DNA of 64,000 nt from an uncultured Pelagibacteraceae bacterium (GCA_902570905.1 CACFZX010000001.1:786-64785), one strand, 5' to 3'. Positions 35,303 through 61,456 are shown, counted from the stretch's first letter. Notes: generated by a model from the sequence alone, not told the origin. Made by a program: numbers and translations.

Positions 35303-36097
35303 TTAATTCTTAGAAGCTCTATCTATCTCTTTTAATTCAACTTCTAGCTTATCTAATTCTTCACCACCTGCCATCATACTTAATAGTTTTTCTCTAGATA
35401 TATTTTTTTTTTCGAATGTTCCTAAACTTTTTCCTCTATTTAGCACAGTAAAACTATTACCAACAGGATAAGCATGGTGCACATTATGTGTTATTAAAAT
35501 TACAGCTAATCCTTGTGATGCTGCTTTAACTATATATTTTAAAACTACAGACGCTTGATGAACACCTAGTGCAGAGGTTGGTTCATCTAAAATTAAAACT
35601 TTTGCACCAAAATATATTGCTCTGGATATAGCTAAACATTGTCTTTCTCCACCTGACATTGTTCCAACAGCTTGTGAGGGATCTCTAACATCAATACCTA
35701 TTTGACCCATTCTTTCAGCAGCTATTTTATTTGCCTTTTCAATATCAAAAGTTTTAAAAAAAGGTATTCCTCTTTGTGGTTCTCTACCCATAAAAAAATT
35801 TCTAGTAACACTCATCAAAGATACCAACGCAAGATCCTGATATACAGTTGCAATTCCCATATCCAAGGCATCTTTTGGTGAGTCAAATATTGTTTGCTCT
35901 CCTTCAACAATAATTTCACCTTCGTCTGGTTTGTGAACTCCAGCTAATGTTTTAATTAACGTAGATTTTCCAGCACCATTGTCTCCAAGTAAACACATTA
36001 TTTCACCTTTTTTTAATTTCATTGTTACATCTTTTAATGCAATTACTTTTCCAAAAAATTTACTTATGTTGTTAAATTGAACAAGATATTCTGACAT
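35303..36097 (-). CDS. Sugar (inositol-type) ABC transporter ATP-binding protein
   Basis: [26 protein letters not shown]; single-domain CUT2 ATPase. Confidence 0.9.
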
Positions 36098-37224
36098 TAT
36101 TTACTCTCAGTAACTTTCTTTCTTATAAAATTATTAAATACGACAGCAATTAACATCATTGCGCCTAAAAAAACTTTAAACCAATCAGTATCCACATCTG
36201 TATAAAAAATTCCCATTGAAACTGTGCCAAAAATTATTGCTCCAAAGGCAGCACCTATCGCAGACCCGTAACCTCCAGTTAACAAACAACCACCAACAAC
36301 TGCAGCTGCAATTGCTTCTAATTCTTTTAAAGTTCCTCTCATAGTATCTGCTGATCCTGCGTCTAATACTTGAATACATGCAAAAATTGTTGAGGCAACA
36401 GCAGTTCCTATGAATAAACTTATTTTAACTCTTCCAACTGGAACACCAACATTTGTAGCGCCAACTTTATCTCCACCTGAAGCGAAAATCCAATTTCCAT
36501 ATCTAGTTTTCATTAAAACCCATGTAGCAAAAATTGTTAAAGCTACAAACCATATTACAGAAGGGGGTATGCCTGTTGCTAGGGGCGTTCCATCAGTCCT
36601 TAATTCAATCAATTCTTTTGATCCCAACCAATTAAAAAGCCATTTAAAACTATCTGTTGCAAATATCCATGCAATCGGATCATTCTCTATTAAAACTCTT
36701 AAACCAGGAACCTGAGTTCTTCCAGTTATTAATCTTGTAATTGCTAATGTTGCTCCTCTTAAAATAAACAACATTGCCAAAGTAACAATAAATGAAGGCA
36801 AACCAGTTCTCACAACCAGTATACCATTAAAATATCCAACCAAAACTGCCATCGCAAAAGCAAAAATAATACTAGTCCATAGTGGCCACCCCCAATAAAT
36901 GGCTGGAATAGCAATACAGATACCAGCAAAACCAATCATAGATCCAATGGATAAATCAAACTCACCTCCAATCATTAACATCGCTGCAGCAATAGCAATT
37001 ATTCCTAAATTTGCTGAAACATCTAAAAAATTTAAAGTACCATATGCACTAAACATTCCAGTATCCCCAGCAATAATACCAAAAAATATAAATACTAAAA
37101 TAGATCCACCCAGTGCACCAAGTTCAGGTCTATTTAATAAAACTTTTAATACTGAAATTTTCTTTAATCTTTCATCTTTTGAAAATTCTTTTTTGGATTC
37201 AATACTTTTAGATTTTTCTGACAT
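36097..37224 (-). CDS. Sugar (inositol-type) ABC transporter permease
   Basis: [33 protein letters not shown] (RbsC family). Confidence 0.9.
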
Positions 37225-37240
37225 TATTATTACTTATTAT

Positions 37241-37277
37241 AAAAAAAAGGCCTGACTAGAAATTAAGTCAGGCCTTT
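37241..37277 (-). terminator. Intrinsic terminator/stabilising hairpin between binding-protein and permease genes
   Basis: 12-bp stem AAAGGCCTGACT / AGTCAGGCCTTT with 8-nt loop, ending in a T8 run on the minus strand. Confidence 0.85.
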
Positions 37278-37288
37278 AATAATAGATT

Positions 37289-38212
37289 TTATCTATAACC
37301 TTGAGCTGCCCACTTAATTACAGCACTAGCATTTTTTGGTGTTACAAATCCAGGTCCAGTCATAACTACACCAGCTGGCATTGTTCCCCATCTCATATAC
37401 TGACCAAATATTGCTATCGGCAAGTAACCTTGAAGATATTGTTGTTGGTCAATCAAAAACTCTACTTTGCCTGCAGCAGCAGCCTTTAACATGTTAGGAG
37501 ACATATCAAATGTTCCTAATTTTACTTTACCAACTTTACCTGCTGATTCTAAAGCTTTTAATGCTGCTTCACCAGATAAACCAGCACCTAAAGTTAAGAT
37601 AGTATCGTATCCACCACCTAATTTAGCTGCAACAGCTTTTTGAATTTCAGTTGGGTCATTAGAAGTACCTAGAATATCAACACTTCCTCCAAAACCTTTT
37701 TTGAAACCTGCACATCTTCTGTCTAGCGCAACGTTTCCAACTTCGTGGTTAACACATAATGCTTTTTTTCCACCAGCGGCTTTCATTTTTTGTCCACCAC
37801 CAACGCCAGCTTCAAACTCAGTTTGTCCAACGTGAGCACTTATTCCTAAAGAAGCATAGTCATCAGAACCAGAGTTCATAGAAATTACTGGTATACCAGC
37901 AGCTATCGCAGCTTTAACTGATTTTCCTAAAGCAGCAGCATCTGGTAAAGTTATCACAATACCTTTAGGTTTTTGTGATACAGCATTGTCAATTAATTTT
38001 GCCATTTCCACCATGTCAAAAGTTGCAGGTGCTGTGTACTTGCAAGATATTCCCATATCCTTGCATCCAGCATCTACACCATTTTTAGCTACTGACCAAA
38101 ATGGATCATTAGCTTGACCGTGTGAAACAACAATTACATCTACAGCTAATGCTGATACAGACATCATAGCCCATGCAGCAATTGCTAATATAAAGTTTTT
38201 TAATGTTTTCAT
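37289..38212 (-). CDS. Sugar ABC transporter substrate-binding protein, probably inositol
   Basis: Signal peptide, VSHGQANDPFWSV, DQQQYLQGY; PBP type I fold; adjacent to iolG/iolE. Confidence 0.85.
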   Translation of the reverse strand: MKTLKNFILAIAAWAMMSVSALAVDVIVVSHGQANDPFWSVAKNGVDAGCKDMGISCKYTAPATFDMVEMAKLIDNAVSQKPKGIVITLPDAAALGKSVKAAIAAGIPVISMNSGSDDYASLGISAHVGQTEFEAGVGGGQKMKAAGGKKALCVNHEVGNVALDRRCAGFKKGFGGSVDILGTSNDPTEIQKAVAAKLGGGYDTILTLGAGLSGEAALKALESAGKVGKVKLGTFDMSPNMLKAAAAGKVEFLIDQQQYLQGYLPIAIFGQYMRWGTMPAGVVMTGPGFVTPKNASAVIKWAAQGYR

Positions 38213-38256
38213 TAAATTTTCCTCTTATTGTTTTAAAGTTAAGTTTTTAAAAAAGA

Positions 38257-38286
38257 ATTTTAATCAAAATATCATTAACTTGTAAA
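38257..38286 (-). promoter_or_regulatory. Candidate sigma70 promoter for the binding-protein gene
   Basis: Minus strand TTTACA-N18-TAAAAT about 45 nt upstream of the start codon; AT-rich background lowers specificity. Confidence 0.35.
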
Positions 38287-38317
38287 GGTGAGAGGTTCTA
38301 TTCTAGTTCTAGTTGAT

Positions 38318-39322
38318 TTAAATAAAATTAAGTTTTTCCAATTTTCTTGAAAAAATAGATTTTTGTGCAGCATTTGCCATAATTAAAGCTTTTCTACCTT
38401 CTTCAAATTCCGCAAGAGGTCTTAAATTTTTTTTAATAAATTTTGAAAAGTCATAAAGTTGATTTTTGTAAGCCTCTTTATATCTTTCTACAAAGAAATG
38501 CATCAATGGCTCTTTACCAGAAGTTGAGTTGCTTGAGTATAAAGATGTCTCGTTTTCTCTTTTATTATCAGAAATTATCATTCCTTTAGAACCAAATAAT
38601 TCAACTCTTTGATCGTAACCAAAACTACAATGTCTTGAATTAGTAATTATACACTGAACCCCTTTTTGAGATTTTATCATACATGAAGCTAATTCATAAT
38701 CTTTAATAATATTAAATTTAGAATTTGATATATTACTACCAGTAGCAATGAGTTTCTTTGGAACATCCTTCCCAAGATAAAATCTTACAAGATCAAAATC
38801 ATGTATCATCATGTCTCTAAATATTCCTCCAGATTCCTTTAAATATTTAAAAGAAGGTGGAGCAGGATCTCGACTAGTAATAATAATTTTTTCTAATTTA
38901 CCTATTTTTCCTTGTAATAGTTTTTTTTTTAAACTGTTATGTCCCGGGTCATATCTTCTATTAAATCCTAATTGAATTTTAGGTTTAAATTTTTTAATTT
39001 TTTTTTTACAGGCATTAATTTTATTAATATCTAAATCTAATGGTTTCTCACAAAATATTGCTTTTTTATATTTTGCAGCATCTGTAATAAGTTTAATATG
39101 AGTAGACGTAGTGGATGCTATAAAAACTGCATCTATCTTTTTATCTCTTAATGCAATTGATGGATTATCTATAGGATTTGATTTAAGAATTTTTGCTGTT
39201 TTTTGAGTTAATTTTTTGTTTAAATCATAAACATAATGTAAATTAAAATCTTTATTTCTCATGAGATTTTTCCCATGCATGAAACCAATCCTCCCTAAGC
39301 CAAATAAAGCGATGTTAATCAT
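38318..39322 (-). CDS. iolG: myo-Inositol 2-dehydrogenase
   Basis: G.GRIG..H, CEKP, GFNRRYDP, SRDP.PP, SGG.F.DM.IHDFD, YDQR.E. Confidence 0.9.
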   Translation of the reverse strand: MINIALFGLGRIGFMHGKNLMRNKDFNLHYVYDLNKKLTQKTAKILKSNPIDNPSIALRDKKIDAVFIASTTSTHIKLITDAAKYKKAIFCEKPLDLDINKINACKKKIKKFKPKIQLGFNRRYDPGHNSLKKKLLQGKIGKLEKIIITSRDPAPPSFKYLKESGGIFRDMMIHDFDLVRFYLGKDVPKKLIATGSNISNSKFNIIKDYELASCMIKSQKGVQCIITNSRHCSFGYDQRVELFGSKGMIISDNKRENETSLYSSNSTSGKEPLMHFFVERYKEAYKNQLYDFSKFIKKNLRPLAEFEEGRKALIMANAAQKSIFSRKLEKLNFI

Positions 39323-39375
39323 TTTTTTGTTTGAATTAAAAAATTAATTTTATATCTTAACCAAAAATATTATTT

Positions 39376-40278
39376 ATGTCAGTAAAATTAGGAGTAGCAC
39401 CAATAGCATGGAGTAATGATGATATGCCAGAGTTAGGCGGCGATACTACTTTAGAGCAATGCTTAGACGAAGCAAGCCAAGCAGGTTATATCGGAGTAGA
39501 AAGCGGAGGAAAATTTCCAAAAAAATCATCAGAATTAATTCCAAAGTTAAATAAGTATAAACTACATCTTTGTTCAGGATGGTATGGAGCTAATTTAAGA
39601 AAAAATTCAGTTAGAGATGAAAAAGAATTAATCAAAGAACAATTGCAATTATTTAAAGATTGCCACTCACCATGTATAGTTTTTGCTGAAGTGTCAGGAT
39701 CAATTCAAGGTGATCCCAATAGAAAATTATCTACAAGACCTCAAATGCAAAAAGACGAATGGAAAGAATTTTGTAATAAAATTTCAGAAATGGGAAAATT
39801 TTTAGAAGATCAAGAAATGCCTTTAGCTTACCATCATCACATGGGAACGGTTATAGAAACTCAAGAGGATACAGAAAGACTTTTGGATAATACACATGAC
39901 AGTGTAAAATTAACTCTGGACACCGGGCATATGTTATTTGCAAAAGGGGATTCAAAAAAAATATTAGAAAATTATAAAACTCGACTAAAACATATACATT
40001 GCAAAGATATTAGAAAAAATGTTCTTGAGAAATCGTTGAGCAAAGATTTTAGTTTCAGGTCTGCTTTCTTAGAAGGTGCTTTTACTGTGCCAGGAGACGG
40101 CTGTATTGATTACATACCTTTATTTGAAATTCTTAAAAATAATAATTATTCAGGTTGGTTAGTTGTTGAGGCTGAGCAGGATCCTAAAAAAGCAAATCCC
40201 TTAGAGTATGCCATTAAAGGTTTTAATTATTTAAAAAATACTTTGGATAAAACTAATATTCAGATAGAGCAAAGTTAA
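39376..40278 (+). CDS. iolE: myo-Inosose-2 dehydratase
   Basis: PI.WSNDD.PELG, YHHHMGT, DTGH, H.KD, VEAEQDP. Confidence 0.94.
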   Translation: MSVKLGVAPIAWSNDDMPELGGDTTLEQCLDEASQAGYIGVESGGKFPKKSSELIPKLNKYKLHLCSGWYGANLRKNSVRDEKELIKEQLQLFKDCHSPCIVFAEVSGSIQGDPNRKLSTRPQMQKDEWKEFCNKISEMGKFLEDQEMPLAYHHHMGTVIETQEDTERLLDNTHDSVKLTLDTGHMLFAKGDSKKILENYKTRLKHIHCKDIRKNVLEKSLSKDFSFRSAFLEGAFTVPGDGCIDYIPLFEILKNNNYSGWLVVEAEQDPKKANPLEYAIKGFNYLKNTLDKTNIQIEQS

Positions 40279-40779
40279 TTATCTATAAATTGAGGTTAAC
40301 TCGTTATTTCCTGCTGCTACACATGGTGATTTAAAACAAGTTCCAACAATCCATTCAGAACCTGGTTCTGGTTGAAAGTTTGAAGACATTAAAAATATGA
40401 CACCCATTTCTACAGATTGTCCAGCTTTTCCTTCAGCTTTAATTCTTGGATCTGGGTCTGTTTTAACTTTAGAGTCGTCAGAAAAAGGGTTTTTTATTTC
40501 TAAATTTTTATTGATATAATTTACAACTTTATCTGCTATCCATTCACCATTACATGGATCTCCCCATAAAGTTAAGGAACCTTCACCAGAATTTCCACAT
40601 TTATTTACTTCATTATTTAAAAAATCCACAACCTGTTTATGATTTTCTTTAACTAAATTAGCTTTAGCTTCAACAGCTGGCCTTGTACTAGCTGTCCAAA
40701 TTAACATACCAACCACATACATTAATGATACTAGAACTAAAGCTTGTAATAATCCAAAGTTTTTAAAGTTAATTCTCAT
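40279..40779 (-). CDS. Membrane-anchored pilin-like protein with degenerate prepilin motif
   Basis: Short basic leader, hydrophobic helix, then AK.N..K.NH..VV.F...E..KC segment resembling type IV pilin alpha1-C; four Cys. Confidence 0.5.
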   Translation of the reverse strand: MRINFKNFGLLQALVLVSLMYVVGMLIWTASTRPAVEAKANLVKENHKQVVDFLNNEVNKCGNSGEGSLTLWGDPCNGEWIADKVVNYINKNLEIKNPFSDDSKVKTDPDPRIKAEGKAGQSVEMGVIFLMSSNFQPEPGSEWIVGTCFKSPCVAAGNNELTSIYR

Positions 40780-40782
40780 TAA

Positions 40783-41748
40783 TTAAAGTTTAATTATTTT
40801 TGATTTGTCTAATCTTTTTTCAAAAAAATCAATAATATTTTGTATCGTTTCTTTTGCCATTCTAATCATACATTCTTCAGTAAATGCTGCGGTATGAGGG
40901 CTTAACATAACTTTATCGTTTTTTAATAATGGATTACTCTTATCAGGAGGCTCAGTATGAAAAACATCTAAACCAGCTCCAAAAATTAAATTTTCTTTCA
41001 GTGCTTTATCTAAGTCTACTTCGTTTATGATACCACCTCTTGCAGCATTTATTAATATACAATTTTTTTTCATAGTCTTTAATAAACTATAATTTATTAA
41101 ATTTTCTGTATCTTTATTTAGGGGTATATGTAAAGAAATTGCATCCATATCTTTTACTGCATTAGCTAAATTATCTACTTTTTTTCCACCTAACTTTTCA
41201 ATAATTTCCTTCGAAACAAACGGATCATATATAAATACATTCATCTCAAATCCCTTACATCTTTTGATTAAACATTGACCAATTCTTCCAAATCCAGCGA
41301 TTAAAATATTTTTATTCCATAATTCAATAGTCTTGGGTAATTTATTTCTTTCCACGAATCTTCCTGATTTTACCGTTGAATCGTACATATCTTTTCTTTT
41401 AGAAATATTTAAAAGCATAAACATTACATGTTCCGCTACCGCAACAGCATTAGCAGTAGCAGTTATTGAAAGTGTTATATTATTTTTTTTAGCTGCTTGA
41501 GTATCAATATTATCATACCCAACACCATGTCTTGATATAATTTGCAATTTTTTGGAATTATTTATTAAATCACCTGGTAATTTTGCAGTTCTAATTGAAA
41601 GAGCATCACATTCAGAAATTTTAGAAATTATATTTTTAGTATCTAAATTTTCAATTACCTCAAAATCAAAATTAGGATGATTTTCTAAAAGATCTATTCC
41701 AGCTTTATGAATAGATTGAATCACCAAAATTTTTTTTTTATCAGACAC
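40783..41748 (-). CDS. D-2-hydroxyacid dehydrogenase (SerA-like, no ACT domain)
   Basis: RHGVGYDN, VAEH, GFGRIG, INAARG, DVF..EP, SPH.A. Confidence 0.9.
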   Translation of the reverse strand: MSDKKKILVIQSIHKAGIDLLENHPNFDFEVIENLDTKNIISKISECDALSIRTAKLPGDLINNSKKLQIISRHGVGYDNIDTQAAKKNNITLSITATANAVAVAEHVMFMLLNISKRKDMYDSTVKSGRFVERNKLPKTIELWNKNILIAGFGRIGQCLIKRCKGFEMNVFIYDPFVSKEIIEKLGGKKVDNLANAVKDMDAISLHIPLNKDTENLINYSLLKTMKKNCILINAARGGIINEVDLDKALKENLIFGAGLDVFHTEPPDKSNPLLKNDKVMLSPHTAAFTEECMIRMAKETIQNIIDFFEKRLDKSKIIKL

Positions 41749-41753
41749 TTAAA

Positions 41754-42545
41754 TTAATATGCTTTTGAGTCTTCGTTAGATTTTACAGATTTTAGTTTAG
41801 AAACTGCACTTTTTGCTCCTGCGCTCATATATCTTTGATCAGAACCAATTGTAACGAGATTAAATCCTAGTTCTAACATTTTTTGTGCATATTCTGGAGT
41901 TGCATTATGTATACCAGCAAAAATATTATTTTTTTTAGCATGGCTCAAAATATTAACAATCTGTTTATAAGTTGGACTACCTTCAGGGTTATCGAAAGCT
42001 GGTTTTTCACCTATTGCTAAACTTAAGTCAGCTGGTCCTATATAAATACCATCCAAACCATCCGTACTCATTATTTCATCTAACTTATCTAGAGCTTCTT
42101 TAGTTTCAATCATTGCTATTTTTAGAATTTCATCATTTGCATGATTACCATAATCTCCACCACCATAAATTAATCCTCTTATTGGGCCAAAACTTCTATA
42201 TCCTTTAGGAGGATACATGCATGCTTTAACAAATTTTTCTGCTTCAAGTTTATTACTTACCATTGGACATATTACTCCATAACAACCTGCATCTAAAATT
42301 TTCATTATTTGTCCTGGTTCGTTCCAATTAACCCTAGCTAAAGGTGTAACATCTGTAGAAGATATTGATTGAAGCATTTGTAAAGCATTTGGGTAATCTA
42401 TTACACCATGCTGCATATCAATTGTTAAAGAGTCCCATCCTTGATGGGACATAACTTCAGCAGAAAAGGAACTTGGAATTTGTAACCAGCCGTTTACAAT
42501 TGGCTTTCCTTCTTTAATCATCTTTTTAATTTTATTAATTCTCAT
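41754..42545 (-). CDS. HpcH/HpaI class II pyruvate aldolase
   Basis: IDMQHG, RV, LDAG..G.I.PMV, YPP.G.RS, MIET, IGPADL. Confidence 0.92.
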   Translation of the reverse strand: MRINKIKKMIKEGKPIVNGWLQIPSSFSAEVMSHQGWDSLTIDMQHGVIDYPNALQMLQSISSTDVTPLARVNWNEPGQIMKILDAGCYGVICPMVSNKLEAEKFVKACMYPPKGYRSFGPIRGLIYGGGDYGNHANDEILKIAMIETKEALDKLDEIMSTDGLDGIYIGPADLSLAIGEKPAFDNPEGSPTYKQIVNILSHAKKNNIFAGIHNATPEYAQKMLELGFNLVTIGSDQRYMSAGAKSAVSKLKSVKSNEDSKAY

Positions 42546-43987
42546 TATATTTTGATTCCTAGGTGAGTATATTTTACGTTCAAGTAATCTTTGATAGCCA
42601 TAGAACCACCTTCACGTCCATATCCTGTCTGTTTAATTCCTCCAAAAGGTGCTTCTGCAACAGCAACAGCAGCTGTATTTACTGCAACAGTTCCTGTTTG
42701 CATTAATTCAGATGCTCTATGAGCTTGATCCATTGAGTTAGTGTATATATAACTACATAAACCAAGGTCATTATTATTTGCTCTTTCAATAACTTCATCA
42801 AATGTTTTAAAAGATAACATAGGAACAAGTGGTCCAAATGGCTCTTCTTTCATTATTGTAAAATCATCTTTTACATCATCAAATATTGTTGGCTCATAAA
42901 AATATCCTTTATTAAAACCAGATGGTCTTTTTCCACCAAGTAAAACTTTTGCTCCTTCTTTTTTCGTTGTTTCAACTAATGCTTCAACTTCTGATAATCT
43001 TTTTGCAGTGGTTAAAGGCCCTAATTGAACATCTTTATCCAATCCATTTCCTATTTTAAGTTTTTTTGTTTTATCAATAAAAGTTTTTATAAACTCATCT
43101 TTCTTTTTTTCTTGAATATAAAATCTATTTGGTGAAATACATACTTGACCATTATTTCTAAATTTTGCTGTAATTGCCATATCAGCAACTTTGTTTATAT
43201 CAACGTCATCAAAAACTATAAAAGGCGAGTGACCACTAAGTTCCATTGTAACTCTTTGAACTTTATCTGCTGCTTTTTTTAATATTAATTTTCCTACTCT
43301 TGTAGACCCAGTAATAGAAACTTTTTTTACAATATCAGACTCTAATAATTCGTTAGATATTTCAGCTGGATCTCCTGACAAAAGATTCACAACTCCTGAA
43401 GGAACGCCAGCCTCTTTACAAATATCTATTAATTCCATAACTGTTCCTGGGGTAATTACATCTGGTTTACAAATCACTGAACATCCGGCTGCTAAAGCTG
43501 TAGATATTTTTCTAGCTGCTAAAACTAATGGAAAATTCCAAGGGACTAACGCAGCTACCACACCTACCGGTTGGTAATAAACATGAACCCTGGTTTCAGG
43601 GAATCTACTTTGAATTGTTTGTCCATAAATTCTTTTTGTTTCCTCAGCGTTCCATTCAAATATATCAGCGGCACCACCTGTCTCTCCAATTCCTTCAGCT
43701 ATAGGTTTTCCTACTTCCAATGTTAACCATTTTGCTAAAATATCTTGTTTTTCTCTCATTAAATCTGCTATTTTTCTAATAATATAAGATCTTTTCCACG
43801 GTGAAGTATTTTTCCAAATTTCTAATCCTCTCTCAGCAGATTTCAAAGCTTTCTGAACATCTATAGACGAGGCTTTAGATGCTTTGCCAATAATTTCCTC
43901 AGTTGCAGGATTAATTACTTCGTAAGTTTCTTTTTTTTCAGCTTGTTGCCATTTACCATCAATGAACTGTCCAAATTTACTATACAT
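42545..43987 (-). CDS. NAD-dependent aldehyde dehydrogenase (GabD / AraE alpha-ketoglutarate-semialdehyde dehydrogenase-like)
   Basis: PWNFP, TGST.VG, MELSGHSP, KFRN.GQVCISP, EEPFGP; no MmsA/IolA signature. Confidence 0.88.
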   Translation of the reverse strand: MYSKFGQFIDGKWQQAEKKETYEVINPATEEIIGKASKASSIDVQKALKSAERGLEIWKNTSPWKRSYIIRKIADLMREKQDILAKWLTLEVGKPIAEGIGETGGAADIFEWNAEETKRIYGQTIQSRFPETRVHVYYQPVGVVAALVPWNFPLVLAARKISTALAAGCSVICKPDVITPGTVMELIDICKEAGVPSGVVNLLSGDPAEISNELLESDIVKKVSITGSTRVGKLILKKAADKVQRVTMELSGHSPFIVFDDVDINKVADMAITAKFRNNGQVCISPNRFYIQEKKKDEFIKTFIDKTKKLKIGNGLDKDVQLGPLTTAKRLSEVEALVETTKKEGAKVLLGGKRPSGFNKGYFYEPTIFDDVKDDFTIMKEEPFGPLVPMLSFKTFDEVIERANNNDLGLCSYIYTNSMDQAHRASELMQTGTVAVNTAAVAVAEAPFGGIKQTGYGREGGSMAIKDYLNVKYTHLGIKI

Positions 43988-44040
43988 AATTTTTATTTTA
44001 TGGTTTATTAAGTGAAATTTTAAGGGAATATATCTAGATT

Positions 44041-45885
44041 ATGAAAAAAATAAAGCTTACATGTGCACATGCAATAGTCAAATATCTTATATCTCAAAAA
44101 ATTCTCATTGATGGCAAAAAAGAACCTTTATTTGCTGGTGCATTTGGTATTTTTGGCCATGGTAATGTAGCTTGTTTGGGTCAAGCATTAGAAGAAAATA
44201 AAGATCAAATTCCAACCTTTAGAGGTCATCACGAGCAAAACATGGCTTTAACAGGAATAGCTTATGCAAGAGCAAAAAGAAGAAAACAAATTTTTGTTGC
44301 GACTAGCTCTGTAGGACCTGGTTCAACAAATATGGTTACAGCAGCAGCAGTAGCAATGAGTAATAGGTTGCCAGTTTTATTTTTACCAGGTGATACTTAT
44401 GCAAATAGGATGCCTGATCCTGTACTTCAGCAAGTTGAACATTTCAATAATCCAGGAGTAACAGCAAATGATGCTTTTAAACCTGTAACTAGATATTTTG
44501 ATAGAATTACTAGGCCAGAACAAATTTTACAAACCTTTCCTCAGGCAATTCAAGTTATGTTAGACCCAGCTGATTGTGGACCAGCATGCATTTCATTATG
44601 TCAGGATATACAAGGAGAAACATTTGATTATCCAGAAGATTTTTTTAATGAGAAAGTTCATAATATTAGAAGACCAAGACCAGATGATTTTCAAATTAAA
44701 GAAGCAGTAGAAAAAATAAAGAAATCAAAAAATCCAATAATAATTTCAGGTGGCGGAGTTTTTTATTCTGATGCAATGGATGATTTATCAAATTTTGCAA
44801 TTAAACATAATATACCAGTAACTCAAACAGTTATGGGTTACTCAACTATGAAAAGAGACCATTCTCATTTTTTAGGACCTATTGGAGGACTTGGAGGGAA
44901 AGCTGCAAATAATTTTGCAAAAGAAACTGATCTAGCTATTGCAATTGGAACAAAACTTGGTGACTTTACTACTGGTTCATGGGCAAATTTTGAAAATCCT
45001 AAATTTTCACTAGTTTCAATTAATGTTTCTAGATTTGATGCAAATAAACATATGGCACAATCTGTTATAGGTGATGCTAAGGTTTCACTTAATGAACTTT
45101 CACAAGCCCTAGGTGATTGGAAAGCACCTGATGATTGGTATCAGAAATCTAGAAGTGAACTTAAATCTTGGAATGAATATGTAGATAAAGAAAGTGGACC
45201 GACTAACCAAAAACTTCCAAGCTACGCACATGCAGTTGGAGCGATATACAGAAATTCAGATCCAACTGATATTGCAGTAACTGCAGCAGGTGGTTTAGTA
45301 GGAGAAGTAGTTCAAATTTGGAGACCTAGAGAACTTAATACCCATGAAACAGAGTGGGGTTTTAGTTGTATGGGATATGAAATCTCAGGATCTCTAGGCA
45401 TTAAAATGGCTAACCCAGACAAAGAAGTAATTACATTTATTGGCGATGGTTCTTACCTTTTATATAATTCAGATATTTATTCATCAGTTATCACAAACAA
45501 TAAACTTATAATTGTTGTCTGTGATAACGGAGGACATGCAGTAATCAATAGATTACAATTATTTAAGGGAGGAAAAGAATTTAATTGTCTTTTTGAAAGT
45601 TCAAATGCTCCAAATCTTGTAAGTGTAAATTTTGCAAAACATGCAGAGAGTATGGGGGCTAAATCTGAACAAGTATCTTCTATCTCTGAACTTGAAGAGG
45701 CATTTAAAAGAGCAAAAAAATCAAAAGTAACATATGTAATTTCTATAAAAACTCACTCATATCAATGGTTAGAGGGGTCAGCTTATTGGGAAAGTCCAAC
45801 TTTAGAGATTCCAACATCAAAAGAAAATGAACAAGCATTGAAATTACACAAAGAAGGTAAATCCAAACAAAGACAAGGTGTTTAA
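44041..45885 (+). CDS. iolD: 3D-(3,5/4)-trihydroxycyclohexane-1,2-dione acylhydrolase
   Basis: IFGHGNV, EQ.MA, S.GPG..N, LPGD..A.R.PDPVLQQ, E.GFSCMGYE, ThDP motif GDGSY...DN. Confidence 0.95.
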   Translation: MKKIKLTCAHAIVKYLISQKILIDGKKEPLFAGAFGIFGHGNVACLGQALEENKDQIPTFRGHHEQNMALTGIAYARAKRRKQIFVATSSVGPGSTNMVTAAAVAMSNRLPVLFLPGDTYANRMPDPVLQQVEHFNNPGVTANDAFKPVTRYFDRITRPEQILQTFPQAIQVMLDPADCGPACISLCQDIQGETFDYPEDFFNEKVHNIRRPRPDDFQIKEAVEKIKKSKNPIIISGGGVFYSDAMDDLSNFAIKHNIPVTQTVMGYSTMKRDHSHFLGPIGGLGGKAANNFAKETDLAIAIGTKLGDFTTGSWANFENPKFSLVSINVSRFDANKHMAQSVIGDAKVSLNELSQALGDWKAPDDWYQKSRSELKSWNEYVDKESGPTNQKLPSYAHAVGAIYRNSDPTDIAVTAAGGLVGEVVQIWRPRELNTHETEWGFSCMGYEISGSLGIKMANPDKEVITFIGDGSYLLYNSDIYSSVITNNKLIIVVCDNGGHAVINRLQLFKGGKEFNCLFESSNAPNLVSVNFAKHAESMGAKSEQVSSISELEEAFKRAKKSKVTYVISIKTHSYQWLEGSAYWESPTLEIPTSKENEQALKLHKEGKSKQRQGV

Positions 45886-45892
45886 CAAAACC

Positions 45893-47053
45893 ATGAATAG
45901 AGTTTTTAAAGTGGGTTTAATAGGTTGTGGTCATATTTCTGAAACTTATTTTAGAGCTCATAAATATTTTAATAATTTCAAAATAATAAAATGTGCCGAT
46001 ATTAATGAGAAAGCAGCAAAGAAATGCTCTAAGCAGTATGGAATAAAATTTCTTTCCGTAACTAATTTACTTAAAGATAAAGAAGTTGAAATTATTTTAA
46101 ATTTAACACCACCAAAATCACATTTTCAAATTGCAAAGAAAAGTCTTTTAAATGGCAAGCATGTTTATTCTGAAAAACCTTTAGCAATAAATTTGAAAGA
46201 TGGAAAAGAGTTATTAAAAATTTCTAAAAAGAAAAAACTTTATATAGGTAATGCACCAGATACATTTTTAGGTGGAGGAAATCAAAAATCTAAAGAACTT
46301 TTAGAAAAAAATATTGTTGGTAAAGTTAATCTTGGAAATGCAATATTTGCTTTTCCTGGTGTTCAATCTTATCATCCTAATCCTGAACCTTGGTTTGCAA
46401 AAAAAGAAGGTGGCCCAGTAATTGATATGGGGCCATATTATTTAACTGCTTTAGTAAATTTATTAGGACCAGCTAAAGAAGTTAAAGCTGCAAGTTTAAT
46501 GAAGGGTACTAAATTTAGAACAATTGGAATTGGTCCAAAAAAAGGTAAAAAAATTAAAGTTGAATGCCCCACAACATATTTCACTACAATCGTTTTTGAA
46601 AATAACTCTATTATAAGATTAACATTATCTTTCGATGTAATTGCACATCAAAGAAATCATATAGAGTTATATGGCACAAAAGGATCGATGATTGTTCCTG
46701 ACCCAAACATGTTTGGTGGATCTGTTTATGTCTGCAAAAGTCTTGGAAAACCATGGAACGAATTTAAAACTAACAAAATGGCATTAGGAAAAATTAATAT
46801 TAGATCACAAAGCTCAAGAGCAAACGAATCTCCTACAAATGCAAATTACCGAGGAGTAGGATTAGCCGAAATGGCTTATTGTATTGAACACAAAAAAAAG
46901 CATCGATGTAGCGGTGAAGTTTCTGTTCACGTTTTAGATTTAATAGAGTCTACAATGTATTCTGCAAGGACAAACAAACCAAAAAAAATTGATACTACTT
47001 GCAAAATACCTAAAATATTTACAGCAAAAGAAATAAATAAAATTATGAGATAA
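45893..47053 (+). CDS. Gfo/Idh/MocA family oxidoreductase
   Basis: IGCG.IS, NLT.P..H, YSEKP, APDTFLG, GGP..DMGPYY. Confidence 0.9.
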   Translation: MNRVFKVGLIGCGHISETYFRAHKYFNNFKIIKCADINEKAAKKCSKQYGIKFLSVTNLLKDKEVEIILNLTPPKSHFQIAKKSLLNGKHVYSEKPLAINLKDGKELLKISKKKKLYIGNAPDTFLGGGNQKSKELLEKNIVGKVNLGNAIFAFPGVQSYHPNPEPWFAKKEGGPVIDMGPYYLTALVNLLGPAKEVKAASLMKGTKFRTIGIGPKKGKKIKVECPTTYFTTIVFENNSIIRLTLSFDVIAHQRNHIELYGTKGSMIVPDPNMFGGSVYVCKSLGKPWNEFKTNKMALGKINIRSQSSRANESPTNANYRGVGLAEMAYCIEHKKKHRCSGEVSVHVLDLIESTMYSARTNKPKKIDTTCKIPKIFTAKEINKIMR

Positions 47054-47054
47054 T

Positions 47055-47954
47055 ATGCAAATCGGTATTGATGTTGGCGCAACAAAAATAGAATATATAA
47101 TATTACATGATAATGGTGAAGAGAGTAGCAGGTCTAGGATTGATTGCCCAAAAGATTATGTCTCAATTATAAAATCAATAAAAGAAATAGTAATTAAACT
47201 TGAAAAAGATGCAAAAAGAGAACTTCCTGTTGGCGTTTGTCATCCTGGTATTCATTCAGTCCATACAGGTTTAATTAAAAACTCCCCCAATTGTGAATGG
47301 ATAAATAATAAGCCATTTCAAAAGGATTTAAGATCATTATTATCTAGAGAAGTTTTTTGTGAAAATGATGCAAATTGTTTTACACTTTCTGAAGCTATAG
47401 ATGGATCAGGTAAACATTATAAAATAGTATTTGGTGTAATTTTAGGGTCTGGTGTTGGTGGAGGTTTAGTCATTGATAAAAAAATTGTATCAGGACCACA
47501 CGGTATTACTGGAGAGTGGGGTCACAATCAAATACCTATGATTGGTAAGGATATAAAAATTGAAAAAACAAATTTAAGAGAAGGTGAGATAGAAAGCTTT
47601 GTTTCTGGTTTAAGCTTAGCAAAAAAATTTAATGAGAAATATAAAAAAGTTCTTACTGCTAACCAAATTTTTGAATTATACAGAAAAAATGATTTAGACG
47701 CACAAGGATCTATAGAGGAATTTAAAGAAAATTTATCTATGGGAATAGCTTCAGTAGTAAATGTATTAGATCCAGATGCATTTATTTTTGGTGGAGGACT
47801 ATCAAATGAAATTGATTTTTTTAATGAAGTACAAGCTAATGTTAGAAAATTTGTTGCAGGTAATGAATTCGAAGGAGTTTTTTTGAAACCAAAGTTTGGA
47901 GATGCAAGCGGTGTAAGAGGCGCAGCAAGATTAGGAAGAAGAGTAAGTTATTAA
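47055..47954 (+). CDS. ROK family sugar kinase (Mak/fructokinase-like)
   Basis: GID.G.TKIE, ENDANC..LSE, G.GVGGG, GEWGH, GGGLSN, GD.SGVRGAA. Confidence 0.88.
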   Translation: MQIGIDVGATKIEYIILHDNGEESSRSRIDCPKDYVSIIKSIKEIVIKLEKDAKRELPVGVCHPGIHSVHTGLIKNSPNCEWINNKPFQKDLRSLLSREVFCENDANCFTLSEAIDGSGKHYKIVFGVILGSGVGGGLVIDKKIVSGPHGITGEWGHNQIPMIGKDIKIEKTNLREGEIESFVSGLSLAKKFNEKYKKVLTANQIFELYRKNDLDAQGSIEEFKENLSMGIASVVNVLDPDAFIFGGGLSNEIDFFNEVQANVRKFVAGNEFEGVFLKPKFGDASGVRGAARLGRRVSY

Positions 47955-48799
47955 TGAAATTATTAAGAGCAGGTTTACCAGGAAAAGAAAAACCTGCAAT
48001 TATAGATAATGAAAAAAATTTTAGAGATCTATCTAAAGTAGTTAGTGATTTTAATCCACAAAATTTAAATTTTGACACCATAGAAAAGATAAATCAAAAA
48101 AATATAAATTCTCTTCCTTTATTAAATAACAATGAGAGAATAGGATCTTGTGTAACAAACCCAGTAAATTTTTTGGCTATAGGATTAAACTATAAGGCAC
48201 ATGCTGATGAAACAAATTCAGCAGCACCAAAAGAACCTATAGTATTCAATAAATCTCCAAATTGTATAATAGGTCCTCATGATGATGTAGTGATACCAAA
48301 AGAATCAAATTCACTAGATCACGAAGTTGAGATAGCTGTAGTTATTGGTAAAAAAGCTAAATATGTAAATGAAAAAAATGCTCAGGATTACATACTCGGT
48401 TATTGTATCTGTAATGATATTAGTGAAAGAGATTGGCAAAAAAATAGAGGTGGCCAATGGGTAAAGGGGAAATCAGGAGATACATTTGGACCTCTTGGAC
48501 CATATTTAGTAACCAAAGATGAAATTGAAGATCCTTTTAATTTAAATTTATCATTAGATTTAAACGGCAAAAGAAGACAAACAGGTAATACAAAATTAAT
48601 GATTTTTAATTTTAATTTTCTTATATCCCATATAACTCAATTTATTACATTAATGCCAGGCGATTTAATTACAACAGGCACACCCTCTGGAGTTGGAATG
48701 GGAATGACACCACCTGAATATTTAAAAGAGGGAGATCAAATGAAACTTAAGGTAGACGGTTTAGGTGAACAAAATACTAAAGTTTCTAAAGAGAAATAA
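47954..48799 (+). CDS. Fumarylacetoacetate hydrolase family protein
   Basis: MKLLR.G..G.EKP, IGLNY..H, D.EVE, ND.SER, K..DTFGP.GP, TGTP.GVG. Confidence 0.92.
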   Translation: MKLLRAGLPGKEKPAIIDNEKNFRDLSKVVSDFNPQNLNFDTIEKINQKNINSLPLLNNNERIGSCVTNPVNFLAIGLNYKAHADETNSAAPKEPIVFNKSPNCIIGPHDDVVIPKESNSLDHEVEIAVVIGKKAKYVNEKNAQDYILGYCICNDISERDWQKNRGGQWVKGKSGDTFGPLGPYLVTKDEIEDPFNLNLSLDLNGKRRQTGNTKLMIFNFNFLISHITQFITLMPGDLITTGTPSGVGMGMTPPEYLKEGDQMKLKVDGLGEQNTKVSKEK

Positions 48800-54015: not shown

Positions 54016-54816
54016 ATGACTCAATTCAAAAATTATAAGATTTACCATACTTTTTTAAACACTCTCGCTAAAGATTTGACGAGATTTTATTATAAAAAAT
54101 TAGACAAACCTTTTAAAGTTTCAAACAAGTTAAAGGGAAGAGGGTATGATCCAGTAACTAGTTCAGACAAAGCTTTTGAAAAATTTATAAGATTAAAAAT
54201 AAAAAAAAAATTTCCTTCACATCAAATAATAGGTGAAGAATTTGGATACAAAAAAAGGAAAAGTGATTATTCCTGGGTAATAGATCCTATAGATGGAACA
54301 AGATCTTACGTCATTGGAAATCCAACATGGAGTAACCTTGTAGCCTTAAATTATAAAGGTAAGCCAGTTTTAGGTCTTGCAAATTTTCCCAAACTCAAAA
54401 AATATTATTTGAATGTTAATGATAAAAAATCATATGTATATGAAAATGGAAAAAAAAGATTATTAAGTGTGGCTAAAAAAATTAATTTTTCTAATGCAAA
54501 AGTAGCAGGAGCTTTCCACGGTTGGCTTTCAATACAAAAACAAAAAAAAATTCCAAAAGTTTTAAAATTAATGCAGTTTCCATGTTTTGATGCATTGAGC
54601 TACACTCATCTTTCAGAAGGAAAATTAGATATAGTTATTCAATGTTCAAATAAAATTTGGGATATTCATCCTATAATACCTATACTCAGATCAGCAGGTG
54701 CCGTTATAACTACTTGGAATAATAGGGAAGCCGAGCTTGCTGGAAATATATTGGTCTCGAATAACATTAAAAACCATAAAAGAATGTTAAAACTATTGAA
54801 ACCTGTTTCAAATTGA
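54016..54816 (+). CDS. Inositol monophosphatase family, probably histidinol-phosphate phosphatase HisN
   Basis: DPVT..D, GEE, WVIDPIDGT, IWD motifs. Confidence 0.8.
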   Translation: MTQFKNYKIYHTFLNTLAKDLTRFYYKKLDKPFKVSNKLKGRGYDPVTSSDKAFEKFIRLKIKKKFPSHQIIGEEFGYKKRKSDYSWVIDPIDGTRSYVIGNPTWSNLVALNYKGKPVLGLANFPKLKKYYLNVNDKKSYVYENGKKRLLSVAKKINFSNAKVAGAFHGWLSIQKQKKIPKVLKLMQFPCFDALSYTHLSEGKLDIVIQCSNKIWDIHPIIPILRSAGAVITTWNNREAELAGNILVSNNIKNHKRMLKLLKPVSN

Positions 54817-58413: not shown

Positions 58414-60095
58414 TGAGTTTTTTAAAAATAAACAACCTTAGTGTTAATTATGAAATGCGTAGAGAAATTGTGTACGCAGCAAAAGGAGTAAATATTACTG
58501 TTGAGAAAGGTGAAATTCTTGGTTTGGTTGGTGAGTCTGGATCTGGAAAAAGTACAGTCGGTAACGCGATTATTAATCTTATAGATGAACCAGGTAAAGT
58601 CTCCAGTGGATCAATTATAGTCGATGGGGTGAATATTTATGAAAATCCTGAAAATATTCTTCAACTTAGAGGGAAAAAAATAGGTCTTATTTTTCAGGAT
58701 CCACAAACATCTTTAAATCCAATACTTACAATAGGAGAACAATTAATTGAAACAATTCAAACCCATTTAAAGTTAAACAAAGAAGAGGCAAAAGAAAAGG
58801 CAATTAACTTGTTAAAAGAAGTTGGAATAAAAGATGCTGAAATTAGATTTAACAATTATCCACATCAATTTTCTGGAGGGATGAGACAAAGAGTTGTTAT
58901 TTCTTTATCTCTTTGTTGTGAGCCAGAACTTCTTATAGCTGATGAACCAACGACTGCTCTCGATGTTTCAATTCAGTCACAAATTTTAGATTTGATAAAA
59001 AGATTAACTAAAGAAAGAAATTTAGCTGTAATTTTAATTACTCATGACATGGGCGTAATATCTGAGACAACAAACAGAGTAGCTGTAATGAAAAATGGAG
59101 ACCTAGTAGAAATTGGTCCAACAAAAGAAATTTTAACTAATCCAAAAGAGATTTATACGAAAGCACTTGTAAGCTCAGTTCCTCCAACAAATAAAAAAAT
59201 CAATAGGTTTAAAATTATTGAAAAGGAAAACAAAACTCAAAGTGAAACAAATATTAAAATTTTAAATAGATGGACTAAAAAAGAAATTATTAAACAAGAT
59301 TTAGTTAAAGTAAAAAATTTAAGTAAAACGTTTGATGATAATTTTTTTACAGAAAGTTCTAAAAACTCTGTAATGGCAGTAAACGATGTGTCATTTAATA
59401 TAAAAGAGGGAGAATCTTTTGGTTTAGTTGGTGAAAGTGGAAGTGGTAAATCTACAATAGCAAAAATGATTGTTAATTTATATCGTCCAAGTGCTGGGGA
59501 TATTGATTTTGATAATGTTTGTATAACAAAAATTAAAAGTAATAAAGAAATGATGAAATTCAGAAAACAGATTCAAATGATCTTTCAAGATCCTTATTCT
59601 TCATTAAATGGAAGATTAAAAGTAAAAGATATAGTTTCAGAGCCTATTAAACTTCACAATCCTTCTATTAATTCAAAAGATATAGATAGTTATATTTATG
59701 ATTTATTAGAGTCTGTCGAATTAACCCAACAATCAGCTGAGAGATATCCTCATGAATTTTCTGGAGGTCAAAGACAAAGAATATCAATTGCAAGAGCACT
59801 TGCTACTCAACCAAGATTACTTGTTTGTGATGAACCAACTTCTGCTCTTGATGTAAGTATCCAAGCCCAAATACTAAATTTGTTAAAAGATTTACAAGAG
59901 CAATTAAATCTGACAATATTATTTATAAGTCACGATTTACCTGTAGTGAGACAAATGTGTGATCGAATAGGGGTTTTAAAAAATGGAAAGATTTGTGAGA
60001 TCTCCGAAACTGAAAATTTGTTTAAAAATCCATCACATGAATACACAAAAGAATTGTTAACGTTAATGCCAAAAATTGAATCGATTTATAACTAA
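58413..60095 (+). CDS. Dpp-type ABC ATPase with fused double domain
   Basis: Two GESGSGKS, FQDP, YPH.FSGG and DEPT sets. Confidence 0.93.
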   Translation: MSFLKINNLSVNYEMRREIVYAAKGVNITVEKGEILGLVGESGSGKSTVGNAIINLIDEPGKVSSGSIIVDGVNIYENPENILQLRGKKIGLIFQDPQTSLNPILTIGEQLIETIQTHLKLNKEEAKEKAINLLKEVGIKDAEIRFNNYPHQFSGGMRQRVVISLSLCCEPELLIADEPTTALDVSIQSQILDLIKRLTKERNLAVILITHDMGVISETTNRVAVMKNGDLVEIGPTKEILTNPKEIYTKALVSSVPPTNKKINRFKIIEKENKTQSETNIKILNRWTKKEIIKQDLVKVKNLSKTFDDNFFTESSKNSVMAVNDVSFNIKEGESFGLVGESGSGKSTIAKMIVNLYRPSAGDIDFDNVCITKIKSNKEMMKFRKQIQMIFQDPYSSLNGRLKVKDIVSEPIKLHNPSINSKDIDSYIYDLLESVELTQQSAERYPHEFSGGQRQRISIARALATQPRLLVCDEPTSALDVSIQAQILNLLKDLQEQLNLTILFISHDLPVVRQMCDRIGVLKNGKICEISETENLFKNPSHEYTKELLTLMPKIESIYN

Positions 60096-61456
60096 TGAAA
60101 ACTATTTTAATTATTTTTACTATCCTTTTTCTTAATACTTTCATTGCTAAATCGTCTGAAAATAATGACAGTGAGTTTAATAAATGGCTTTTTGATAATG
60201 GACACTCAAAATATGTCACTAAAAAAGAAAATAAAATTTGTGCGAATGAAACAAAATTTAGTCAAGCCTGGTATTTGCAAAAATGTGACAAATTTCAAGG
60301 ATCCAACAATCTAAATATTGAGATAAATAACAAAGCATTGTCAGCAACCAATATTGCCTATCATTCAAACCCAAACAGAGACTCTCTAATTTATTATTTG
60401 TGGAAATACTCATATAAAGACAGAGGTCAACATTTAAAAGAGTTTAAACCTACAAATAATTCTTACGATTTTAAATTCAACTTAATTGAAGATAAATTTA
60501 TAAAAAAGCAAATGAAAACTAAAGGTATTCTTAGTTATTTGTATTACCAAGATGGTGAAGTATTGATTGATGAATTTTCTCCTAAAGAAAGGTTGGGGGA
60601 GTTTTTAAATAATGAAACAAAATTTTATTCAATGTCGATGGGCAAGTCAGTTACTTCCTATTTAGTAGGTCATGCAATATGTGAAGGCTATATTGATGGA
60701 GTTGATGCAAGAGTAAATGACTGGCCTGTAATAAAAGATTCACTTTATCATGATCAAAAATTAATTAATTTTTTAAATATGAATACTGGTGATCAAAAAT
60801 ATATCGATGAATTTGAAGATGGTACAAGTAAATTAGATGCATATGAAGATAGAGATATTGAAACAACTATGCGCTTACACTTTCGAAACAAAAATACAAA
60901 AAAATCTAAGGATATATACAATTATAATGGATTTGTTACTCAGTTAATTTTAAACTATATGAAATTTAAAATCGGAGAAGATTATGACAAATTTTATAAC
61001 AAAGTTTTCAATAATAAAATAAAGATCAAAAATAGCATTCGTTATGGCTATACTAGTCTTCAAGAAAAAAATGGAAATGGACATCCCAACATAATGGCAA
61101 CAAGATTTGACTATCTTAGAATTGCAAAAGCTATAATGGATGATTATCAGAATGATACTTGCGTTGGAAAATATTTAAAAGAACTCCATAAAAGAAGAAT
61201 TCCTAAAAATTTAACTGAAGAAAGAAACGAGCCTGCATTTAATCGCTCAAAATCTTATGGTGGTCAATTTCATATGGATTATCCAGGATTAAAAAATAAG
61301 ATTATCTTTGGCATGAACGGCTATGGTGGACAAGCCATTTTAATTGATATGGAAAATTCAAGAATAGTGGTTCTTAATTCACTTCATTATAATAACACCA
61401 AATATAAATATAATTATAAAAAACTTTTATTTGATACAATCAAAAAAGGGAAATAA
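60095..61456 (+). CDS. Exported serine hydrolase, beta-lactamase class C-like fold
   Basis: Signal peptide, S.SMGKS (SxxK), YNYN, G.GGQ. Confidence 0.75.
   Translation: MKTILIIFTILFLNTFIAKSSENNDSEFNKWLFDNGHSKYVTKKENKICANETKFSQAWYLQKCDKFQGSNNLNIEINNKALSATNIAYHSNPNRDSLIYYLWKYSYKDRGQHLKEFKPTNNSYDFKFNLIEDKFIKKQMKTKGILSYLYYQDGEVLIDEFSPKERLGEFLNNETKFYSMSMGKSVTSYLVGHAICEGYIDGVDARVNDWPVIKDSLYHDQKLINFLNMNTGDQKYIDEFEDGTSKLDAYEDRDIETTMRLHFRNKNTKKSKDIYNYNGFVTQLILNYMKFKIGEDYDKFYNKVFNNKIKIKNSIRYGYTSLQEKNGNGHPNIMATRFDYLRIAKAIMDDYQNDTCVGKYLKELHKRRIPKNLTEERNEPAFNRSKSYGGQFHMDYPGLKNKIIFGMNGYGGQAILIDMENSRIVVLNSLHYNNTKYKYNYKKLLFDTIKKGK

Follow-up and report, generated by a model that had tools for sequence, protein, structure and literature searches.

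An inositol catabolic island without iolB and iolC in Pelagibacteraceae, with a candidate oxidative lower branch

Gene content of the island and the missing iolB and iolC

The window analysed here is a 64,000-nucleotide stretch (contig C1, positions 786-64785) of the 891-kb, 72% complete assembly of an uncultured Pelagibacteraceae (SAR11) bacterium (GCA_902570905.1). Between its positions 38318 and 48799 lies an island of ten open reading frames (ORFs; Table 1) that holds the inositol genes iolG, iolE and iolD together with an aldehyde dehydrogenase (ALDH), an HpcH/HpaI-type aldolase (HpcH), a D-2-hydroxyacid dehydrogenase, a second Gfo/Idh/MocA dehydrogenase (Gfo2), a ROK kinase and an FAH-family enzyme. 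IolG, IolE and IolD yield 5-deoxy-D-glucuronate, which usually continues through IolB, IolC, IolJ and IolA. The island is a real and widespread variant of inositol catabolism that is apparently undescribed, and its gene context points to a lower branch that would be oxidative and kinase-free.

We scanned 45 window ORFs against Pfam and NCBIfam. All ten ORFs of the island were found, on the strands given in the preliminary description, which had been drawn up from this DNA alone. The scans agree with that description on the presence of iolG, iolE, iolD and a cyclitol-type transporter, on the absence of iolB, iolC, iolJ and iolA/mmsA from the 64 kb, and on the families of the six other enzymes. 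As it had stated, the ALDH unit diverges from iolD over 53 bp; iolG and iolE are also divergent, again over 53 bp. The ABC transporter (35303-38212) lies directly to the left of the island. The top NCBIfam family of its solute-binding protein is the rhizopine-binding protein (317.7 bits, under the cut-off of 420) and the top PDB match is 4RU1 (E 1e-42), whose ligand we take to be myo-inositol; the gene occurs in 10 of 20 iolD loci and in none of 16 iolD-negative loci. The island ALDH resembles succinate-semialdehyde dehydrogenase and falls under every NCBIfam equivalog cut-off.

No IolB, IolC, IolJ or MmsA was found among the window ORFs, and whole-genome searches place none there. IolB had no match in this genome, either by profile or with two real IolB proteins as queries, and the best candidate for IolC is a 96-bit PfkB protein, against a cut-off of 300. 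DUF2090 is missing from this genome and from all of five family genomes, and no genome-wide search for IolJ or class II fructose-bisphosphate aldolase was made. The supposed lack of IolA holds for the window but not for the genome, as MmsA/IolA is encoded on contig C7 (31035-32471; 657 bits against a cut-off of 448.5); it is present in 37 of 39 iolD-bearing genomes, and in 48 of 50 family genomes irrespective of iolD.

Because this assembly is only 72% complete, the absence of iolB and iolC rests on its relatives. Our family set comprised 301 genomes, namely this one and 300 evenly drawn, each at least 85% complete (one, G124, is unpublished and contributes one count). iolD was present in 146 of these. 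A single genome (G231) gave an IolB/KduI match; this was weak (43 bits), interrupted by an internal stop and assigned to no NCBIfam family at 1e-25, and we rejected it as IolB. IolC exceeded its cut-off in none of 60 iolD-positive genomes chosen for high completeness (best 110 bits), while control genomes were positive in each of the IolB, IolC, DUF2090 and iolD searches. The iolB/iolC gap is genuine, not an assembly artefact: the objection that both genes might sit elsewhere in the genome, which the preliminary description had raised against itself, fails because they are missing family-wide.

Table 1. Features of the island and of the adjoining transporter (window coordinates; pathway roles are predictions)
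Feature	Position	Strand	Evidence or remark
Sugar ABC transporter ATPase	35303-36097	-	PF00005; 86-93% identity in relatives' iolD loci
Sugar ABC transporter permease	36097-37224	-	PF02653
Cyclitol-type solute-binding protein	37289-38212	-	PF13407
iolG, inositol 2-dehydrogenase	38318-39322	-	TIGR04380, 354.8 bits, cut-off 355 (at cut-off)
iolE, inosose dehydratase	39376-40278	+	TIGR04379, 398.7 bits, cut-off 290
166-aa protein, variable passenger	40279-40779	-	no Pfam/NCBIfam family; between iolE and dehydrogenase
D-2-hydroxyacid dehydrogenase, predicted aldarate C2 oxidation	40783-41748	-	PF02826/PF00389
HpcH/HpaI class II aldolase, predicted C3-C4 cleavage	41754-42545	-	PF03328
GabD-like ALDH, core gene, predicted C1 oxidation	42545-43987	-	PF00171
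iolD, thiamine diphosphate (ThDP) ring-opening hydrolase, HpcH-linked lineage	44041-45885	+	TIGR04377, 803.5 bits, cut-off 715
Gfo2, second Gfo/Idh/MocA dehydrogenase, family-specific	45878-47053	+	overlaps iolD stop
ROK sugar kinase, outside module	47055-47954	+	locus counts
FAH-family enzyme, backbone gene, outside module	47954-48799	+	locus counts

Genes that travel with iolD within and beyond the family

Orthologues of HpcH occur in 151 genomes of the family set, after exclusion of five distant matches near E 1e-41, and coincide almost exactly with iolD: 143 genomes have both, three iolD only, eight HpcH only and 147 neither. In all three iolD-only genomes iolD sits at a contig end. Of the eight with HpcH only, two break off at a contig edge right after the ALDH; in four, HpcH follows the ALDH and iol genes are missing, and the last two hold it elsewhere. 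Both iolG and iolE are found in 39 of 39 iolD-positive and none of 41 iolD-negative genomes. The D-2-hydroxyacid dehydrogenase is likewise in all 39 (at 54-79%) with no close orthologue in the 41, three of which hold 45-48% paralogues away from the ALDH. For Gfo2 the count is 20 of 20 iolD loci against 0 of 60 iolD-negative genomes, and the ALDH is in the same 20 loci, where HpcH, ALDH, iolD and Gfo2 are contiguous across five genera. The tie between iolDEG, HpcH and the dehydrogenase where iolBC are absent, as proposed in the preliminary description, is thus borne out (143/146 and 39/39 versus 0/41). In contrast, the ROK kinase and FAH enzyme, which it had listed among its six candidate genes, do not track iolD and were rejected as members: ROK is in 12 of 20 iolD and 4 of 16 iolD-negative loci, FAH in 4 of 20 and 10 of 16. 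HpcH, the D-2-hydroxyacid dehydrogenase and Gfo2 track iolD, the ALDH is a core gene, and ROK and FAH are unrelated backbone.

The site itself varies. One locus (L030) is an empty backbone reading DMT-ALDH-(6PGD-like)-FAH-ppc-ccdA, and in two others (L028, L044) a module of IlvD/Edd, SDR, sugar ABC transporter and ROK genes stands beside the same ALDH. Four iolD-negative genomes (L035-L038) have ALDH-HpcH-(ROK)-FAH in one run, possibly a remnant or a second use of the aldolase. Two further modules recur. One (L007:13482-17805 and 10 other family loci) lies between the dehydrogenase and HpcH genes and comprises PhyH, a 2OG-Fe(II) oxygenase, an ApbA-like reductase, DUF1907, an unknown ORF of 137 aa and a PanB/PEP-mutase-fold gene. 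Another (L008:11914-17279 and seven other loci) is a ribose-type module behind Gfo2 with a second 2-hydroxyacid dehydrogenase, a sugar ABC transporter, RbsD/FucU and a PfkB kinase; as this PfkB belongs to that module, we rejected it as IolC. The 166-aa ORF adjoins iolE in 9 of 20 iolD loci from several genera, and Atlas links it weakly to N-methyl pilin-like clusters.

A homology search with HpcH gave close relatives only. Beyond the family, the window IolD and HpcH have their best plasmid matches in the same records, and the order ALDH-HpcH-hydroxyacid dehydrogenase (hereafter the trio) occurs with iolD in records from Klebsiella, Qingshengfaniella, Shinella, Paracoccus, Acidiphilium, Pantoea (two) and Rhizobium leguminosarum. 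A GTDB scan with an eight-sequence HpcH alignment (10 of 64 parts, biased towards its first row) returned 568 loci, and in 51 of the best 80 of these iolD lies near HpcH. The dehydrogenase is present in 45 of the 51, the ALDH in 36 and both in 35, and 48 have neither iolB nor iolC in the locus. The suggested linkage of the trio to inositol genes therefore extends to unrelated proteobacteria, where it recurs beside iolD, iolE and iolG. The 51 loci belong to 50 genomes (50 of the loci, two sharing a genome), here called outside carriers. Neither IolB nor IolC exceeds its cut-off in the isolates Pseudomonas sp. TWI929 and Acuticoccus kalidii M5D2P5, each with one HpcH-type iolD, or in two metagenome-assembled genomes; no paper on inositol use by A. 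kalidii was found in the literature. Beside one trio cluster, on a R. leguminosarum plasmid (L180, 16911-19070), are fatty acid desaturase and sterol desaturase family genes, for which a link to a rhizopine-type demethylase is our guess.

In a midpoint-rooted FastTree phylogeny of 94 IolD sequences (SAR11 thinned to 10, partial matches dropped), canonical IolD, taken as the S. meliloti sequence and 29 of the 30 top-scoring matches in the iolD search of outside carriers, forms one clade and 53 HpcH-associated IolD another. The window IolD falls outside the canonical clade, and its group pairs with Shinella zoogloeoides (L053). One of the 53 (L077) adjoins divergent iolC- and iolB-like genes. 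It belongs to a third kind of iolD cluster (G320:C30, G317:C24, G319:C9, which is L077, G321:C1 and L179) with a divergent IolB-like gene (~145-160 bits, under cut-off) and a divergent IolC, possibly serving inositol epimers, and often found in genomes that also hold the other two kinds. The only iolD of Spiribacter onubensis belongs to the HpcH-linked type and shares its locus with iolC and iolB, and four IolE from canonical Rhizobium loci nest within the HpcH-linked IolE clade. Together these suggest that the HpcH-linked upper enzymes can make ordinary 5-deoxy-glucuronate.

Other features of the window are less telling. The G+C content of the island (0.315) is slightly above that of its flanks (0.28 and 0.293), within a range of ~0.21-0.35 per 2 kb over the window; assemblies in the family set measure 0.9-1.5 Mb. 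Metatranscriptome contigs (four runs, three studies) cover each of the 30 bins of 35303-48799 with a likeness of at least 85%, but their organisms are mixed and genes cannot be ranked, so that they do not show transcription and are not used as support. An inositol monophosphatase-family gene near the island (54016-54816), probably HisN, is also found in iolD-negative loci. ORFs without a Pfam match at 1e-6 lie at 18769-20973 (+, 734 aa), 60095-61456 (+, 453 aa) and 5129-6202 (+, 357 aa).

A candidate oxidative lower branch and its alternatives

The product of IolD is OHC-CHOH-CHOH-CHOH-CH2-COOH, and HpcH aldolases act on 2-oxo-4-hydroxy acids, usually releasing pyruvate. Cleavage by HpcH would require prior oxidation at both C1 and C2, because the IolD product is otherwise no 2-oxo-4-hydroxy acid. 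The island as a whole would accomplish this as follows. Uptake and ring opening of inositol are encoded by the genes for the ABC transporter, IolG, IolE and IolD, after which the ALDH would oxidize C1 of 5-deoxy-glucuronate to give an aldarate and the D-2-hydroxyacid dehydrogenase would oxidize C2 to give a 2-oxo-aldarate. The D-configured C2 would suit this enzyme type; C2 of D-glucarate is D-configured. HpcH would then cleave the C3-C4 bond of the 2-oxo-diacid to hydroxypyruvate and malonate semialdehyde, and the MmsA encoded elsewhere would convert the latter to acetyl-CoA. Through the MmsA step the predicted balance is four NAD(P)H gained and zero ATP spent. For Gfo2 the likeliest role is to bring in another cyclitol isomer or to help the C1 step. 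Its identity to the gene that occupies the iolY position in S. meliloti is 25%, no LgdA is among its PDB matches at E<=1e-12, and we rejected it as an IolY/LgdA scyllo-inositol dehydrogenase. Outside the family a representative search found only matches of ~43% or less over its full length, and two plasmid loci pair Gfo2-like proteins with sugar-phosphate isomerase/epimerase and GH43 genes.

HpcH matches PF03328 at 111.6 bits and lies well under the equivalog cut-offs for HpaI, GarL and RhmA (167/369, 140/393 and 118/441 bits). Its top PDB match, above those three enzymes, is the hydroxyketoacid aldolase SwHKA of Sphingomonas wittichii (6R62, E 9e-55), its best solved relative, whose Q43-H44, R69, E145 and D171 (the catalytic Arg/His and metal-binding Glu/Asp) align to identical residues. 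The accessible text on SwHKA reports that it accepts hydroxypyruvate in vitro and that Phe210 contacts hydroxypyruvate C3 (PMC10099721); Phe210 is replaced by His in the window. The best plasmid match of the window aldolase lies in a galactarate cluster of a Leisingera thetidis plasmid (L182, 2466-14250), which ties the subfamily to hexarate-type diacids. In that cluster an SwHKA-like, His-type HpcH stands in place of GarL.

For the C1 step the best independent argument comes from the S. zoogloeoides locus, which phylogenies place as sister to the window for IolD (0.99), for HpcH (0.95) and, with weak support, for the dehydrogenase (0.70). It reads iolD, an NAD-dependent protein, 2-hydroxyacid dehydrogenase, HpcH, a binding protein that shares 45% identity with that of the window, ABC genes, Gfo, divergent iolE, lactonase and iolG, a layout shared by Rhizobium CB3060. 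The trio ALDH is missing, and the protein behind iolD has uronate dehydrogenase as its top PDB match (3RFT, E 1e-14, a modest score); the top match of the lactonase is an SMP-30 protein. In the nearest sampled relative, then, the ALDH would be replaced by a second, apparently unrelated C1-oxidizing enzyme, which favours a uronate-to-aldarate step and lends weight to the C1 oxidation put forward in the preliminary description. In the ALDH tree, for which few outgroups were available, the family core ALDH is sister to the outside-trio ALDH.

We consider it highly probable, from gene context, that the lower branch is oxidative and kinase-free in one variant or another. That it specifically takes myo-inositol to hydroxypyruvate and malonate semialdehyde is a narrower proposition, to which we give a probability of about 0.55; the lower-pathway reactions, the substrate (myo-inositol and perhaps further stereoisomers) and what becomes of hydroxypyruvate are all predicted from genes. 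Several observations weigh against it. The preliminary description had named the keeping of its candidate genes in relatives without iolDEG as evidence against its proposal, and this is in part what we find for the ALDH, which is present in 54 of 60 iolD-negative genomes at 66-84%; HpcH too is retained behind the ALDH in four iolD-negative genomes. The family genomes are related and so not independent samples, so we claim no statistical test. Of the 51 outside loci, 15 lack the ALDH; among the best 80 of 568 GTDB loci no conserved replacement was found in these, the neighbours closing up (the rest of those genomes was not searched). IolB exceeds its cut-off in 43 of the 50 outside carriers, and in 36 two or more iolD pass theirs, as counted from the search output, and this redundancy of the canonical set suggests a different substrate. 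Twelve conserved columns, shared by the window IolD, separate HpcH-linked from canonical IolD, among them R497G and C501V just after the ThDP-motif Asn; since no IolD structure was found in the PDB, they are unmapped. The His at the SwHKA-210 position (His213), where an aromatic residue instead of Leu would mark hydroxypyruvate-using aldolases of the SwHKA type, was considered as a hydroxypyruvate signature; it occurs in 98 of 100 sequences, but is not diagnostic because the galactarate-cluster aldolase, predicted to release pyruvate, shares it. Finally, hydroxypyruvate has no demonstrated sink: glycerate kinases of two classes (PF13660, PF02595; the P-loop class was not searched) occur in none of five family genomes, against four of five outside carriers, and a serine/aspartate-glyoxylate aminotransferase-like protein in only one of six genomes. 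Transketolase or decarboxylation to glycolaldehyde are possible sinks.

Part of this would fit a different cyclitol passing through the same oxidative chemistry, one that the IolB-IolC-aldolase route could not finish, and we hold this as a tentative alternative. A deoxy-inositol of the quercitol type, for example, would proceed through 2,4-dihydroxyadipate and 4-hydroxy-2-oxoadipate to pyruvate and malonate semialdehyde, and a methyl-inositol would give a substituted pyruvate. Such a substrate is favoured by the canonical set and second iolD in most outside carriers, by the separate HpcH-linked IolD lineage with its fixed differences, and by the extra Gfo, SDR and epimerase genes of trio loci (one related to scyllo-inositol/L-glucose dehydrogenase); pyruvate, moreover, is the usual HpcH product and would call for no additional genes, in keeping with the lack of a glycerate kinase. 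Yet IolG, IolE and IolD are at or above their equivalog cut-offs, S. onubensis has its single HpcH-type iolD beside iolC and iolB, the IolE clades mix, and no candidate marine substrate was identified. It is conceivable, if doubtful, that about half of SAR11-family species depend on this ATP-free pathway as their sole cyclitol route, for turning marine deoxy- or methyl-inositol into (substituted) pyruvate and malonate semialdehyde, and that in many plant- and water-dwelling proteobacteria it runs parallel to ordinary inositol catabolism.

The remaining explanations differ in which genes do the work. Gfo2 might make the aldarate or the 2-oxo compound, with the dehydrogenase reducing hydroxypyruvate to glycerate and the ALDH a mere neighbour or a remover of short aldehydes. 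In favour, Gfo2 overlaps the stop of iolD and occurs strictly with it, the ALDH belongs to the core genes and the dehydrogenase family includes hydroxypyruvate reductases, but six outside trio loci lack a Gfo2 orthologue (their Gfo proteins are 22-26% identical) and would then have no C2 oxidant, glycerate would meet no kinase of the two classes in five of five family genomes, and the ALDH is sister to that of the trio; we consider this rather improbable. We judge it improbable, too, that there is no complete pathway, with the upper genes converting or detoxifying a cyclitol while the aldolase and dehydrogenase, from a separate sugar-acid route, share a variable locus. The ALDH locus is indeed a hot spot of swapped sugar modules and HpcH occurs in eight iolD-negative genomes, in at least two of them in unrelated loci; against this stand the near-exact co-occurrence of HpcH and iolD over 301 genomes, and the same trio beside iolD in two proteobacterial classes with largely matching trees. 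A cryptic phosphorylative pathway, in which an unrecognized isomerase, a ROK or PfkB kinase and a housekeeping fructose-bisphosphate aldolase replace IolB, IolC and IolJ, appears very improbable. ROK is in 12 of 20 iolD loci, some genomes have a second PfkB near iolD, and the accessible text on Dysosmobacter proposes fructose-bisphosphate aldolases in place of IolJ (PMC13311982). ROK, however, is also in 4 of 16 iolD-negative loci, the PfkB near iolD, itself absent from the window, is part of a ribose-type module in which it follows RbsD/FucU, the invariant block offers no isomerase candidate, and the iolD-linked HpcH and dehydrogenase would be left unexplained.

Relation to known pathways and significance

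The proposed route shares with canonical myo-inositol catabolism (B. subtilis IolG-E-D-B-C-J-A) the window's IolG, IolE and IolD at or above NCBIfam cut-offs, an MmsA in the genome and the predicted release of malonate semialdehyde by C3-C4 cleavage. It differs in having no IolB, IolC or DUF2090, in an IolD from outside the canonical clade, and in an HpcH cleavage predicted to act on a non-phosphorylated diacid. The oxidative uronate pathway consists of uronate dehydrogenase, lactonase, GarD/GudD dehydratase, GarL aldolase, tartronate semialdehyde reductase and glycerate kinase. Here the likeness would lie in C1 oxidation of a uronate to an aldarate followed by an HpcH aldolase acting on a 2-oxo-diacid; the window aldolase has its best plasmid match in such a cluster (Leisingera), and the S. 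zoogloeoides locus contains both a uronate dehydrogenase-like gene and a lactonase. In contrast to that pathway, the conserved module has no dehydratase, NAD-linked oxidation at C2 would supply the keto group, and the isomer would be 5-deoxy rather than 3-deoxy. Neither uronate dehydrogenase nor lactonase had a match in this genome, where the only GarD-like protein (29%) is on another contig. The SAR11 glycolysis-operon locus, whose gene content Schwalbach reportedly described in 2010, has the same core ALDH anchor and a ROK gene; it differs in that the window site has iol genes and no IlvD/Edd dehydratase.

Parts of such systems have been noted before. Proteobacterial iolCDEB clusters carry an IolC-DUF2090 fusion, according to the accessible text of one study (PMC9007349). 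In the Spiribacter iol region, the available account notes an aldolase/citrate lyase family gene and proposes it as an IolJ substitute on a phosphorylated substrate (PMC11615355); this gene is the HpcH of locus L084. Unlike that of the window, the genome described there retains iolB and iolC, and the accessible part of the account makes no mention of the ALDH or the hydroxyacid dehydrogenase (PMC11615355). As far as the sources go, the bacterial myo-inositol routes found in the literature pass through IolB and IolC. We found no description there of the route proposed here, although its novelty could be affected by papers behind subscription and by the species tables of PMC9430895. By its accessible methods, that survey of iol genes required three of iolBCDE (PMC9430895), and would skip this cluster for that reason.

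If the proposed route is true, a cyclitol sink is present in 146 of 301 sampled genomes and is missed, by definition, by iolBCDE-based surveys such as that one, to judge from its accessible text (PMC9430895). It would likewise provide a natural role for an orphan aldolase subfamily related to the biocatalyst SwHKA, whose natural pathway is not given in the accessible part of its description (PMC10099721). The family very likely comprises the ocean's most abundant heterotrophs. Cultured SAR11 require glycine or serine and pyruvate precursors. One isolation medium contains, in the accessible description, glycine, pyruvate and 6 uM myo-inositol (PMC12789548). The island, if it works as proposed, could explain a source of pyruvate or of serine/glycine precursors in iolD-positive SAR11.

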